Source: an uncultured Gammaproteobacteria bacterium
GTDB lineage: Bacteria > Patescibacteriota > Patescibacteriia > UBA2591 > PGYQ01
Reading direction: 5' to 3'
DNA length: 25,114 bases
Assembly: GCA_964358215.1 (NCBI GenBank)
Contig: CAYHOD010000001.1
Location: forward strand, 866-25,979
Shown here piece by piece: positions 7,586 through 16,375 of the stretch. The notes beneath the pieces were generated by a model. That model searched no databases. It saw only the letters and a program-made list of their open reading frames with translations, and had not been told where the DNA came from. A program made the translations under genes and the position numbers. Within the stretch, counting starts at the first letter, position 1, and each line of letters starts with the position of its first letter.

Positions 7586-7588
7586 AAT

Positions 7589-7674
7589 TTATTGTATCGG
7601 AAAGTGAATATTTAAAAAATAAGTAAGCTTTAATTTTAAAATAACAGTTATAATTATTGAGTCTTGCCAGTGCA
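7589..7674. repeat. Dispersed ~82-bp repeat, copy A
   Basis: ttattgtatcggaaagt(g/a)aatatttaaaaaataagtaag...attattgagt...ccagtgca is shared with 14588-14672. Confidence 0.88.
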
Positions 7675-12918: not shown

Positions 12919-14388
12919 TTATGGCTTTACGGCTTTTTTAAAAATCATTAAACAAAGCAAAATATAAAAAATGCCTGTTGGATAAAATAAAAATGGTCCA
13001 AAAATATGAATAACAAAAAGACAAAATAAGCCAATTAAAATTCCCAAATAAAAATCTTGATTAATTGTTGAATAATAAACTGTTTTAACTCCTTGCCAAA
13101 ATAATATTCCTAAAAACCAAAAATAACTTAAAAAACCAAATAATCCTAGGTCTGTCCAATTCTCTAAATAACCCCAATCAATGTGAGGGGTTTTTATAAT
13201 TTTTTTTGTTGGATAATCATAAGCAACAATTTCAGAACCCATGCCAGAACCAATTATTGGATATTCTTTAATTTTTTTTAAAGCGGCGTCAAGCCGTTCA
13301 AGTCTGGACATGGCGCTGGCTTCTGTTTCTGGAGTAAAAATTGTTTCTATTCTGTCGTTTAAAAACAAAAAATTAGTTTGAATGTTTTTATGATTGCATA
13401 AATAAAAAATCAAAAAACTTTCTAATAAAAAAATTACAATTAAACTTATAGAAAAAATTATTTTTCTTTTTAACGGAATTTTTAAAATTAAACATAAAAA
13501 AATTAAACTAATTACAAATCCTAAAAGAAAATTTCGGGTAAAACTGATTGTTAAAACAACGCTTGATAAAATTCCCAAAAAAATAAGCCAAGGCAATTGA
13601 GAATTTAACCAATAATTTTTTTTTGTTAATTTATAAATATTAAAAAGTAAAATTGAAATTATGATAAGAAAAAAAACTAAAGTTAAAATATCCGACGACA
13701 TAACGACCCTAAAAAAATTATTATTCATTGCGGCTATTTTGCCAATAACATATTCTCTAAACCATTGATAATAAATTCCACCATGAACTGCCGAATGGCT
13801 GGCAAATAAATAAAGCGTTGTTATGGTTAAAGCGCTTGTGGCAATTATTGTTCCGGAAAATATTTGAAATATTTTTTTTATTAATTGTTTATTATTAACA
13901 ATTAAATCAAAAAATGGAAAAATTAATGAGAGATAGCTATAACAAATTAAATCCGCAAAAATAAAATTCCAAGCGTTTCCTCTTATTATTCCTATAATTC
14001 CAGCTAAAGCGATAAAAAATAACGCGAAAGTAAAAGGCTTGAAAAAAAATGATTTTGTAAAATTTTCTATTTGTGATTTTAAAAATTGATAATTTCGTAA
14101 TTTTTGAATGAGCCAAATAAACATAAAAACGGCAAACAAAACAAAACGAATTGATAGACTTTTAAACTCAAAAAGATGTCCGTCAATGCCGGCTAAAAAT
14201 TCAAAAATAAGAAATAAAAGACAATATTCTATTTTCCAAAAACTTAATCCAATTAAAACAATCACCATTAAAAAAAATCCAAAAGTTTCCACATTTGGAT
14301 TTAAAAAGCCAAGGAAAGAAAGGAGATAAATAAAAATACAAGCAAAAAAAGTATAAAGCGTTAATTTTCCAACTGAAATAATGTTCAT
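12919..14388 (-). CDS. O-antigen ligase/polymerase-like (Wzy_C) membrane protein
   Basis: Many TM segments, ISFTRN, SAMSRL, PIIGSGMG and PHIDWGYLE loop motifs; sits among glycosyltransferases. Confidence 0.8.
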   Translation of the reverse strand: MNIISVGKLTLYTFFACIFIYLLSFLGFLNPNVETFGFFLMVIVLIGLSFWKIEYCLLFLIFEFLAGIDGHLFEFKSLSIRFVLFAVFMFIWLIQKLRNYQFLKSQIENFTKSFFFKPFTFALFFIALAGIIGIIRGNAWNFIFADLICYSYLSLIFPFFDLIVNNKQLIKKIFQIFSGTIIATSALTITTLYLFASHSAVHGGIYYQWFREYVIGKIAAMNNNFFRVVMSSDILTLVFFLIIISILLFNIYKLTKKNYWLNSQLPWLIFLGILSSVVLTISFTRNFLLGFVISLIFLCLILKIPLKRKIIFSISLIVIFLLESFLIFYLCNHKNIQTNFLFLNDRIETIFTPETEASAMSRLERLDAALKKIKEYPIIGSGMGSEIVAYDYPTKKIIKTPHIDWGYLENWTDLGLFGFLSYFWFLGILFWQGVKTVYYSTINQDFYLGILIGLFCLFVIHIFGPFLFYPTGIFYILLCLMIFKKAVKP

Positions 14389-14392
14389 AAAA
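14344..14392. repeat. 49-bp direct repeat, left copy (includes the ligase ATG and first codons)
   Basis: 48/49 identical to 15431-15479. Confidence 0.95.
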
Positions 14393-14397
14393 TAGAC

Positions 14398-14465
14398 AGA
14401 AATTTTTAATTACAAAACGCCATTAGAATTTTCAAAAATGCCTGCCAATGTACTCATCTTGTACA
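14398..14465 (+). mobile_element. Possible 3' remnant of an integrase-core (IS481/IS3/IS30-like) transposase and IS end
   Basis: Plus frame reads EIFNYKTPLEFSKMPANVLILY, resembling the YxTPxE C-terminal motif; the segment ends in TACA. Short, with no catalytic core. Confidence 0.35.
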
Positions 14466-14482
14466 ACTGTTAATAACTTCTA

Positions 14483-14511
14483 TTGATTTTATTTGCGGGA
14501 TTTGTTATATT
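14483..14511 (+). promoter_or_regulatory. sigma70-type promoter TTGATT-17-TATATT with TG extension
   Basis: TTGATT 14483-14488, TG 14503-14504, TATATT 14506-14511. Confidence 0.6.
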
Positions 14512-14517
14512 AATAAT

Positions 14518-14589
14518 GTCTTTCAGTTTTTATAAACTGAAAGGGTATTACATCCAAGGGCAATCCTCTTCGCGGAGGGTTGCTTTTTT
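14518..14589 (+). ncRNA. Candidate ~70-nt two-hairpin small RNA
   Basis: Follows the promoter; perfect hairpin ctttcagttt-ttat-aaactgaaag (14520-14543), then a terminator. No ORF. Confidence 0.45.
14556..14589 (+). terminator. Intrinsic terminator
   Basis: aagggcaatcctc-ttcgcg-gagggttgc followed by tttttt; the stem includes G-U pairs. Confidence 0.65.
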
Positions 14590-14672
14590 ATTGTATCGGA
14601 AAGTAAATATTTAAAAAATAAGTAAGTTAGAATTATAAAATAACCGCACCATTATTGAGTTTCACCAGTGCA
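14588..14672. repeat. Dispersed ~82-bp repeat, copy B
   Basis: Homologous to 7589-7674. Confidence 0.88.
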
Positions 14673-14709
14673 GGAATTTTCTTTTAGAACCCGCTCTTGA
14701 TATTCAATT

Positions 14710-14763
14710 CGACTTTGACACTTGCTATCCAAACTTGAATATTAAGTTTGGGTAGCAAAGTCG
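14710..14763. repeat. Long imperfect hairpin 3' of the NYN gene
   Basis: ttgctatccaaactt-gaatatt-aagtttgggtagcaa (14/15 arms); outer cgactttg/caaagtcg. Confidence 0.8.
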
Positions 14764-14800
14764 GGTTTCAAGTTCGAGTTAGAAAATTTTGCTTATCTGG

Positions 14801-15388
14801 TTATTTTTCCGGTCGATGATGCAATTCTCGGCCCCAAACATCTTCTGCAATGCACAAAACATCAGAATAACCATCACCGCCAGTTTTTAATTCTTCTGAA
14901 ATATTATTTTTTGATGAAAAAATATAAACTTTTTTACTCGCTCTTCTTAAATAAGATACTAAAGCTAAAAAATCCGAGTCGCCGCTAAAAAGTACGGCAA
15001 TGTTATATTTATTTATATTATGCAATGCGTCAATTGTTATTTCAACATCCATATTGCCTTTTTCTTCAATGCTTTCACCATTTTCTGTAATAATAAAAAT
15101 CCGTTTTAATTCCTTTTTTCTTACAATAAAACCAAGTCCTTTTTTGAGAAAAGTATAAAATTTATGCCGTCCATTCAGACTATAAACTCTTGTGCCTTCA
15201 GCGGGATAAGCAGTGTAATAAAAAATTTTTATAATAAAACTATGAAAATTTTCTTTAATAAATTTTTTTAGTTTTTCGTAATCAAAAAATTTTCCTTTTG
15301 CTTTTTGCGCTTCCCAAAGATTGGATGCATCAATAAAAACATAAACAATATTTTTATTTGCTATTTTTTGATTCAATTTATTATTCAT
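14801..15388 (-). CDS. NYN-domain (LabA/DUF88, PIN-like) putative RNase
   Basis: VFIDASNL, EKGNMDVEITID, LFSGDSDF acidic catalytic motifs, SEELK. Confidence 0.9.
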   Translation of the reverse strand: MNNKLNQKIANKNIVYVFIDASNLWEAQKAKGKFFDYEKLKKFIKENFHSFIIKIFYYTAYPAEGTRVYSLNGRHKFYTFLKKGLGFIVRKKELKRIFIITENGESIEEKGNMDVEITIDALHNINKYNIAVLFSGDSDFLALVSYLRRASKKVYIFSSKNNISEELKTGGDGYSDVLCIAEDVWGRELHHRPEK

Positions 15389-15403
15389 TTTATTTTTATT
15401 TAT

Positions 15404-15475
15404 TTAAATTATATCCTTATTTTTAAAACTAAAAAAAGTGTAAAGCGTTAATTTTCCAACTGAAATAATGTTCAT
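15404..15475 (-). pseudogene. Orphaned 5' fragment of the ligase gene (MNIISVGKLTLYTFF plus 8 unrelated residues)
   Basis: First 15 codons match the ligase N-terminus, then the sequence diverges and stops at 15404. Confidence 0.75.
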
Positions 15476-15479
15476 AAAA
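15431..15479. repeat. 49-bp direct repeat, right copy
   Basis: aaaaaaagt(g/a)taaagcgttaattttccaactgaaataatgttcataaaa. Confidence 0.95.
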
Positions 15480-15496
15480 ACATAAATCAAAAATTA

Positions 15497-16375
15497 TTAT
15501 TTTAAATTTTCTTTCTTCCCAAACTTGCCATTGCGATAATCTTGATAGCCTTGTATCATTGCTTTTATTTTTAATATTTTTTGATCTTCCCCAATTAAAA
15601 TTCTTATTAAATCTTTTAAAAATCCGATGCTTTCTTTTTTACAAAAATTAGGAAAATCTTTTTTATAATGATTAATAAGATAAAATCTATTTCGAGTTGC
15701 ATAATATCGTCTTATTGGAGGGTAATTTGTAGAAAAAAACCAAAAACATTTTTTCAAATTTCCAAGGTTATGTTCTAAAATTGCTCTATTTGCTTGTATA
15801 ACTAAAAAACCATTTTTATTAAGACGCAAACAATATTCATGATCAACGGAATCTATAAAAAATTTATCTATAAATGGCCCAATTTTTTGATAAACGTTTA
15901 AATTTAATAAATTTCCAGACATCATCGTGGTAAATACTTTTGATCCTATTTCATTTCTTTTGATATTTTTTTCTGAAAATTTATTAAATTTATTTTTATG
16001 AACGGGCGAAATAATTCCAATATTTTGTGAATCATAAAAATTTAAACATTCTATTAACATAGGAATTATTTTTGGAACGGCTTTACTGTCTGAATCAATT
16101 GTAAATAACCAATCATATCCATTTTCAATGGCTTTTTGCGCGCCAACATTAAGAGCGTTTGCAATCCCCTGATTTCCGTGATTATCAATATAATAAACTT
16201 TTTCTTTGGTTTTTAAAGCATTAATAATTTCTATTTCTTTTTTATCAGAATTATCAACAACAAATAAAATATCCAAATCTTCAATATAAGAATCAATGTT
16301 ATTAATAACATTTGAAGTTGGATTATATAATGCGACAACACCGGCGATTTTTATTTTATCTTTTTTCATAATCAT
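15497..16375 (-). CDS. GT2 glycosyltransferase (rhamnosyltransferase-like)
   Basis: VVALYNP, VVDNSD, NQGIANALNVG, TIDSDS, SGNLL, FFIDSVDHEYCLR, RRYYATRN. Confidence 0.9.
   Translation of the reverse strand: MIMKKDKIKIAGVVALYNPTSNVINNIDSYIEDLDILFVVDNSDKKEIEIINALKTKEKVYYIDNHGNQGIANALNVGAQKAIENGYDWLFTIDSDSKAVPKIIPMLIECLNFYDSQNIGIISPVHKNKFNKFSEKNIKRNEIGSKVFTTMMSGNLLNLNVYQKIGPFIDKFFIDSVDHEYCLRLNKNGFLVIQANRAILEHNLGNLKKCFWFFSTNYPPIRRYYATRNRFYLINHYKKDFPNFCKKESIGFLKDLIRILIGEDQKILKIKAMIQGYQDYRNGKFGKKENLK

Follow-up and report, generated by a model that had tools for sequence, protein, structure and literature searches.

A 1087-bp islet carrying the gene of an NYN-domain nuclease and that of a small RNA (sRNA) interrupts a surface-glycan operon in the 25,114-nt stretch of DNA analysed here (the window; NCBI GenBank assembly GCA_964358215.1, contig CAYHOD010000001.1, positions 866 to 25,979), which comes from an ultra-small groundwater bacterium of the Patescibacteriota (PGYQ01 in GTDB) with an 834-kb genome that is 98.9% complete. 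The islet is foreign DNA inserted just inside the gene of an O-antigen ligase-like membrane protein (Wzy_C; hereafter the ligase), and its left joint is an in-frame chimera of two genes. With a probability of roughly 0.6, we read it as a foreign, toxin-antitoxin-like NYN-sRNA module that was captured through microhomology with duplication of the target and that later received repeats of the host. An earlier note on this DNA, made from the letters alone, had proposed a mobile islet; the idea appears right in outline, and the mechanism suggested by the sequences, microhomology capture with target duplication, is unlike the one that it put forward.

Two direct repeats, identical in 48 of 49 bases with an exact run of 39, lie 1087 bp apart in the window (Table 1), and the pair can be extended to 56 nt at 93% identity (14337-14392 and 15424-15479). 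The 49-bp repeat has only these two copies in the whole genome, and a rough, composition-based estimate of the chance expectation for such a pair in the window is about 1e-15. The duplicated segment runs from position -4 to +45 of the ligase gene and, as the earlier note had claimed, each copy contains the ligase ATG. On the minus strand the GT2 glycosyltransferase gene, the last one ahead of the insertion, is followed by a 21-nt spacer, an orphan stub, the NYN gene, 412 bp without a long open reading frame (ORF) and the ligase gene. The stub downstream of GT2 was confirmed, and so was the intact Wzy_C gene opened by the other copy, by which the duplication leaves the ligase whole. What the note had placed between the copies was largely recovered: the NYN gene, the long hairpin, dispersed repeats (three host families) and a candidate sRNA, the last borne out by a promoter/terminator scan, by conservation across NYN loci and by covariation. 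No integrase ORF lies between the repeats, as it had stated; its possible insertion sequence (IS) end had to be dropped, neither terminal inverted repeats nor a transposase being found.

Table 1. Features of the islet and its surroundings. Positions are those of the window, except for the two last rows, which give further repeats of the host genome.
Feature	Position	Strand	Basis and remarks
GT2 glycosyltransferase, rhamnosyltransferase-like	15497..16375	-	PF00535, 2.7e-10; TIGR01556, 1.2e-34, below its cutoff
Upstream copy of the duplication, at the ancestral ligase-start position	15431..15479	-	repeat search; 21-nt gap to GT2 stop
Stub ORF, 23 codons	15404..15475	-	ATG at 15475, stop at 15406-15404; reads MNIISVGKLTLYTFFSFKNKDII, then stop
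RadC 3'-end remnant and RadC-NYN spacer, 48 bp, left end of the import	15389..15436	-	homology to L038, L044, L046, L048 and L049 begins at 15436/15437
NYN-domain (LabA-like, PIN-like) nuclease, 195 aa	14801..15388	-	PF01936, 2.3e-22, 80.5 bits
Host dispersed repeat C, long palindromic hairpin, between NYN stop and sRNA gene	14710..14768		3 other copies in the genome; -22.9 kcal/mol, z -5.3
Host dispersed repeat B	14584..14672		12 or more further copies in intergenic DNA of the genome
Small RNA gene, convergent to NYN	14483..14595	+	promoter/terminator scan, fold, covariation
Imported block 2, directly 3' of NYN in the nearest relatives	14467..14592	-	90% identity to L044 763-887; 77-82% to L038, L045 and L046
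Host dispersed repeat A	14397..14466		at least 9 other intergenic copies, both orientations
Downstream copy of the duplication, start of the intact ligase	14344..14392	-	repeat search
Wzy_C (O-antigen ligase-like) membrane protein, intact	12919..14388	-	PF04932, 1e-14; begins MNIISVGKLTLYTFFACIF
Further two-copy repeats	C44:634-802/2908-3072; C76:1896-1951/3151-3206; C100:39-205/1839-2008; C20:9192-9269/10956-11033		
Further two-copy repeats	C5:13430-13471/15937-15978; C88:1-132/1933-2062; C9:13156-13190/13500-13534		

Sister species hold the site in its empty form. Two genomes of the same genus (G003 and G004) have the genes SerRS-GT1-GT2-ligase-GT2 in the same order, without NYN, and with 22 nt from the GT2 stop to the ligase ATG. 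Since this spacer measures 21 nt in the window, it is the stub that now stands where the ligase originally began, and the working ligase lies 1087 bp further downstream. The uninterrupted GT2-ligase junction that the earlier note had proposed to look for in relatives was therefore found, and with it the claim of an inserted islet was substantiated. Ligase orthologues from four species of the genus show 72-84% identity. All four have TAT at the site of the sole mismatch between the two repeat copies, as does the downstream copy, and the stub has TAC; on this comparison the stub reads as the copy that has begun to drift.

The NYN type of the window was not found at E <= 1e-20 in any of 40 relatives (5 from its genus and 35 from its order), and it occurs in 2 of 300 species drawn evenly from the phylum, that is, in about 1% of the sampled Patescibacteria. 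Yet the best 120 homologues in the database are 71-91% identical to the window NYN, the nearest one 91%, and the proteins encoded at 80 species loci labelled as many different Patescibacteria lineages are 54-82% identical. Rarity among relatives together with high identity across lineages fits horizontal spread.

The left end of the islet can be read base by base. The stub peptide consists of ligase residues 1-15 followed by SFKNKDII and a stop, and this tail is the end of a RadC protein, which at locus L045 closes with KDSFFSFKNKDII (FFSFKNKDII, then stop) and at related loci with close variants. The stub is thus an in-frame ligase/RadC chimera. The ligase sequence TATACTTTTTTTGCT and the RadC sequence GGATTTTTTAGTTTTAAAAATAAGG have a run of six to seven T in common, and it is inside this run that the stub switches from one to the other; the joint falls at ligase codons 14-16, where TTTTTT(T) is shared with the RadC 3' end. 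A chimera joined in a shared T-run indicates microhomology-mediated illegitimate recombination rather than an attachment (att) site or a transposon. As judged from these alignments, the left end of the islet is an arbitrary breakpoint inside a foreign RadC gene and not the defined end of an element. The host genome lacks a RadC gene; in the nearest relatives of the cassette (L038, L044, L045, L046, L048 and L049) one stands directly ahead of NYN.

Homology to other NYN loci extends over two blocks. The first runs from 15436 to 14801 and matches them at the nucleotide level; the second contains the sRNA gene and, at other NYN loci, lies within a few bases of the NYN stop. In the window the blocks are separated by 208 bp (14593-14800) in which host repeats B and C are found, and repeat A lies beyond the imported DNA, ahead of the ligase ATG. 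Each of the three families has 3 to 13 further copies in the host genome. Because none of these repeats occurs between NYN and the RNA gene at the other NYN loci displayed, they are probably later arrivals. The original cargo amounts to about 755 of the 1038 bp between the duplicated segments, and host repeats to about 280 of the 1087 bp. A possible outward promoter within repeat A (TTGAAA 14435-14430, TAATTA 14412-14407) was noted by reading the sequence; as a promoter element the repeat was rejected, its orientation to neighbouring genes being inconsistent at other copies.

Could the arrangement be an artefact, or ancestral and lost in the relatives? Either is barely credible. Metagenome-assembled genomes can be chimeric, and nothing further speaks for the idea. 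Three independent ENA assemblies (L033-L035), from two wells of the Hainich groundwater transect, hold the same colinear arrangement at 99.97-100% identity, and unitig depth is even. Logan depth is 6.66 in the ligase flank, 6.47 in the insert and 5.5 in the GT2 flank of X1; 7.23, 5.53 and 7.0 (two insert pieces) and 6.07 in X2; and 8.74 in the ligase flank and 8.06 in the insert of X3. With even depth and three assemblies the arrangement is not misassembled; a deviating GT2 end in L035 turned out to be a scaffold gap filled with N's and not a variant. Moreover, insertion is betrayed by the duplicated gene start and by the foreign RadC tail, the 40 relatives are without this NYN type, and the stub stands exactly where the sister species have their ligase start.

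The second gene of the cassette is oriented towards NYN. In the window a promoter TTGATT-17-TATATT (TTGATT 14483-14488, TATATT 14506-14511) precedes a predicted RNA of about 75 nt (at about 14518-14593) with a hairpin P1 (14519-14545) and a terminator (14556-14587) followed by a U-run. Across 75 aligned loci a TTGACA-type -35 box and a TATAnT -10 box are conserved, followed by a 10-bp hairpin, a near-invariant linker GGGUAUUACAUCCAAGGG, a 12-bp terminator hairpin and the U-run, which at other loci normally abuts the NYN stop codon. The window copy folds with -31.8 kcal/mol (z -7.2). The structure is supported by covariation: over 22 pairs, pairing holds in 97.1% of the cells, and compensatory changes were seen in 14 of the pairs; none of 500 shuffles reaches any of five covariation measures, and sliding the pairing partners by 1-3 columns drops the paired cells to 40-64%. 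Frequent G-U pairs are consistent with the plus strand alone. The RNA follows the NYN stop directly at 79 of 80 other loci, which answers a check proposed in the earlier note, whether NYN homologues carry the same flanking RNA, and supports its idea of an RNase-plus-RNA unit; within the 300-species sample the only genome with the sRNA has NYN adjoining. No Rfam family matched the sRNA at gathering or E-value thresholds, and the window holds no tRNAs. The sRNA core occurs once in viral sequence, on a 2.2-kb viral contig, and no NYN relatives were found in IMG/VR or INPHARED.

The RNA also has other partners. Searches with model R1 located it convergent to an AbiEii toxin gene (L122:899-1823) and, as a diverged copy, convergent to an ORF of 184 aa (L145:970-1597; G005, same genus) that has no Pfam match and is known only from Patescibacteria. 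It was also found alone, as remnants at L144:1501-1598 (G033) and L138:3257-3350 (G067). It would thus be the protein that is exchanged and the RNA that stays constant.

At 8 of 76 loci (L051, L054, L059, L063, L092, L096, L099 and L110) the sRNA -35 box has a perfect DnaA box (TTATCCACA) no more than about 40 nt away, usually a few bases beyond the -35 box and, in L096, between the -10 and -35 boxes. An inverted box was seen by eye at L077, L083, L090, L123 and L125, a further site is listed at L145:1614-1622, and the window copy (14470-14478, TTATTAACA) has two mismatches. This frequency is far above chance for a 9-mer; the box might connect the cassette to regulation by DnaA or else mark its right end.

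The NYN protein matches PF01936 with 80.5 bits against a cutoff of 24.2, over profile positions 2-140 of 145. Three acidic motifs, candidates for the active site (IDASN, GNMDVEITID and SGDSDF), were read by eye in its translation, and the two latter align with the solved LabA-like protein 2qip, to which the match is weak; from such features it would be a PIN-like RNase. A survey of the PIN superfamily lists NYN.COG1432 (LabA-like, PF01936) as of 'function unknown' (PMC5499597), and the literature that we searched contained no description of an NYN-small RNA module. The cargo is likely a self-contained, selfish module of two genes, composed of an NYN/PIN-like RNase and a convergent RNA predicted to be transcribed independently. 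No terminator belonging to NYN precedes the RNA gene, the U-run of the hairpin being on the opposite strand, and NYN transcripts would thus be expected to continue through the RNA gene in antisense, as in txpA/RatA. Such transcripts would be restrained by pairing with the sRNA; alternatively, the sRNA may bind NYN or be cut by it. We infer that the two most likely work as a toxin-antitoxin-like pair. Decayed copies were also seen: NYN fragments lie elsewhere in the host genome (C20 and C55), the NYN of L130 is frameshifted, and only the RNA is left in G067 and G033. The fragments (C20:413-849 and C55:3035-3217) are broken pieces of other NYN genes without an sRNA copy, one of which (C55) has 88% DNA identity to window positions 15008-15110, and they probably derive from earlier cassettes that have since decayed. 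A patchy distribution combined with high conservation, the decayed copies and the pairing with AbiEii fit a toxin-antitoxin-like module, either selfish or defensive.

How does the pair compare with known toxin-antitoxin (TA) systems? As in the type I pairs txpA/RatA and bsrG/SR4 of B. subtilis, an sRNA with its own promoter runs towards the 3' end of its partner, its terminator abuts the stop codon, a toxin mRNA that reads through would be complementary to the whole of it, and the unit is small and travels. In those loci the antisense RNA overlaps the 3' end of the toxin gene; an overlap with the coding region of NYN would be putative. In contrast, the toxins known from type I systems are small membrane peptides; the partner here is a nuclease of 195 aa, and the sRNA is near-invariant across distant lineages and also occurs with AbiEii and an unknown ORF. 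Type III systems (ToxIN, CptIN and TenpIN) likewise join an endoribonuclease toxin to a structured RNA without a protein antitoxin; however, the antitoxin there consists of tandem repeats that lie upstream of the toxin gene, share its strand and are processed by the toxin, while we find a single convergent RNA gene and a nuclease with an NYN/PIN-like and not a ToxN/Kid-like fold. VapBC and other PIN-domain toxins also use a PIN-like nuclease as the harmful part of a small mobile module, but no protein antitoxin gene lies upstream of NYN.

A different role, in which the cassette would act against phages by abortive infection under the control of its RNA and would be retained because the host benefits and not by addiction, is possible and in our view the less probable one. 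PADLOC gave weak matches to a 'LabA-like NYN nuclease' (4.9e-9) and to HEC-09; the nearest NYN relatives lie between RadC and DNA methylase, restriction or Fic genes; and DUF3800 adjoins the cassette in L101, as AbiEii does in L122. Nevertheless, the cassette of the window stands alone within a glycan operon, and the decay of copies is as compatible with a selfish, dispensable gene as with a gene for defence. This question concerns the role of the cassette and not its insertion, and it overlaps with the toxin-antitoxin interpretation.

Is the duplication particular to this locus? A survey of the 80 other NYN loci found a direct repeat within 2.5 kb on either side in 16 of them, and tight flanking repeats in 5 of 77 loci as compared with 2 of 270 shifted control positions (Fisher p = 0.007). 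These repeats are unrelated in sequence, 28-103 bp long and sharp-edged. At L116 the start of a DHH-family gene is present a second time as a 33-codon stub, at L122 an 86-bp repeat takes in the promoter of an mscL-like gene with its ATG and nine codons, and at L110 a 34-bp core lies within the start of a small membrane-protein gene; in all three NYN is co-oriented with the host gene, as it is in the window. At L130 a 49-bp repeat is the exact 3' end of a convergent gene, with the empty site in G075 and an RNA-only remnant in G067. In L101 (1969-3928), three repeat copies of 50-120 bp separate DUF3800, an NYN-sRNA cassette and a DNA methylase gene, a layout that looks like a small cassette array.

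We propose the following course of events. A foreign fragment would have been cut from an island of the RadC-NYN-sRNA-methylase type in another Patescibacterium and joined 45 bases into the ligase gene by illegitimate recombination in the T-run. Ligase positions -4 to +45 would then have been copied again beyond the insert, giving a dead chimeric stub and an intact ligase 1087 bp downstream. Host repeats C and B inside the insert and repeat A at its right edge would have been added afterwards. The likeliest route would be a replication template switch or a related microhomology-mediated join, in which the nascent strand would leave the ligase template at +45, copy the foreign fragment and return at about -4. 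The sequences themselves demonstrate that foreign DNA was inserted, that the joint is chimeric, that NYN and the RNA are linked and that the RNA is structured; the template switch and the toxin-antitoxin function are inferences drawn from them.

Homology-facilitated or microhomology-mediated illegitimate recombination and replication template switching are known processes. The islet resembles their products in a joint made in a few shared bases, a donor breakpoint inside a gene, the lack of defined element ends and a target duplication of variable length. It differs from them in that the same cargo landed repeatedly just inside the ends of host genes with duplications of 30-100 bp, a pattern that to our knowledge has not been described. 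Transposition is not supported: among the 25 longest inverted-repeat pairs shown none pairs both ends, as would be expected of a transposon, an IS or a miniature inverted-repeat transposable element, there is no transposase ORF, and a duplication of 49 bp here and of other lengths elsewhere is not the fixed-length target duplication of transposons. Nor was a reverse transcriptase (PF00078) matched in the host genome, which argues against retro-insertion.

The earlier note had regarded the islet as a minimal non-autonomous element, and an integrative element that uses the ligase start as its att site, integrated and excised by a recombinase encoded elsewhere and thereby switching the coupling of the ligase, is an explanation that we consider very unlikely. 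Direct repeats that flank the insert and restore the gene are indeed found in many integrative elements, the genome does encode one tyrosine recombinase (PF00589), and the assembly graph closes to a 1087-bp cycle in two runs, where two 1117-bp Logan contigs self-close with a 30-bp terminal overlap. However, such 'circular' contigs appear because a k=31 assembly graph meets an exact repeat of 39 bp. Contigs from four runs have equal depth in insert and flanks, which speaks against a surplus of circles, and the flank contigs stop 30 bases into the repeat; the 1087-bp circle that the note had suggested looking for is an effect of the graph. Logan contigs gave no sign of excision; at k=31 they are blind to rare excision and also to the empty site, since the exact repeat is longer than k. 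Nothing in the data favours the switch of glycan expression that the note had put forward. The single recombinase gene lies on another contig and has no link to the islet. An att core common to independent insertions was not found, the repeats at 12 other loci being unrelated and 28-103 bp long, and at the left end the ligase reads in frame into a truncated foreign gene; an element with its own ends or att site is thereby disfavoured. Compared with islands at att sites in the 3' end of tRNA or protein genes, the islet shares the flanking direct repeats and the intact interrupted gene, but it has no integrase, no conserved att core and no defined ends, and it is a 5' gene end that is duplicated.

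Somewhat less improbable, though still unlikely, is a single homologous crossover of the Campbell type with a small circle that carried the cassette and homology to the ligase start. Its geometry always yields direct repeats of the shared segment, and the copies at L116 and L110 are an identical core beside diverged homologous sequence, like two recombined alleles. The crossover would nevertheless require that a ligase fragment had been joined to the cassette beforehand, and illegitimate joints typically look like the ligase/RadC chimera, which is in frame and sits at a T-run. Logan contigs showed no circular form, and 49 bp is close to the lower length limit of RecA-type recombination.

Several observations count against microhomology capture of a toxin-antitoxin-like module. 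A template switch is indistinguishable from other routes that duplicate the target. The right joint is overlain by repeat A and unreadable; at L044, the nearest relative, the methylase gene behind the cassette starts with TTATGAACA, the same nine bases as the ligase start, a 9-nt match that is only suggestive. Most NYN loci have no flanking repeat, the repeats of L101 and L122 each exist in three local copies, and L059 was discarded as a clean target duplication, its 103-bp repeat being multi-copy in its genome. As to function, the sRNA linker has only chance-level complementary targets in the host genome, and NYN is set apart from the RNA gene by 208 bp of host repeats, which might break the coupling if the mechanism were purely cis-antisense.

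The host genome contains at least seven further two-copy direct repeats of 35-170 bp, which look like the same kind of insertion scar. All five that were checked bracket one to three accessory genes: AbiEii, an AAA_14-DUF4143 ATPase, a methyltransferase, PD40 with an M23 peptidase, and a weak DnaJ-like match. Repeats around accessory genes hint at a process at the level of the host rather than at a property of NYN. An empty site for the AbiE cassette on C5 was not confirmed, left-flank synteny not being kept in the genus and the comparison thus uninformative. Some of these host repeats include the promoter and first codons of a gene. One may speculate, and we do so tentatively, on a so far undescribed gene-uptake pathway of Patescibacteria. 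Cassettes that lack a promoter would insert at the end of a host gene or a few codons into it, co-oriented with it, 30-170 bp of target would be copied, the gene would be rebuilt behind the cassette and its promoter would be borrowed. The NYN-sRNA cassette, as an undescribed RNase toxin with a universal RNA antidote that would also serve AbiEii and other proteins, might then be the most successful rider of this pathway.

The islet provides a dated, base-resolved case in which a streamlined uncultured bacterium gained a foreign gene without integrase or transposase while the target gene was kept, with the joint preserved in a chimeric stub and the empty site in sister species. It adds the anatomy of an insertion to the nuclease-small RNA pair of Patescibacteria, which, if it is a toxin-antitoxin system, would represent a new class where an NYN RNase is held by a convergent RNA. 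The insertion separates a surface-glycan gene from its operon and may alter the cell envelope of the strain.

The GT2-ligase junction is also unsettled in the two remaining species of the genus that have a ligase orthologue: in G002 its gap consists of 373 nt of palindromic repeats, and in G005 the ligase follows an unrelated gene. The G002 gap (L031, from GT2 stop to ligase ATG) is made of long palindromic AT-rich repeats with units of the AAATCCCAA type, and the junction seems to be an insertion hot spot in the genus. The open frame of the ligase match has 541 aa in G003 and G004 (L029 and L030), with extra residues near position 110, as compared with 489 aa in the window and 590 aa in G002. 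A copy of repeat B also lies at 7588-7674 of the window, in the gap ahead of a dihydrouridine synthase gene. Finally, a 68-bp direct repeat of 97% identity (1-68 and 661-728) is located within the first, partial ORF of the window, which comprises 522 aa.

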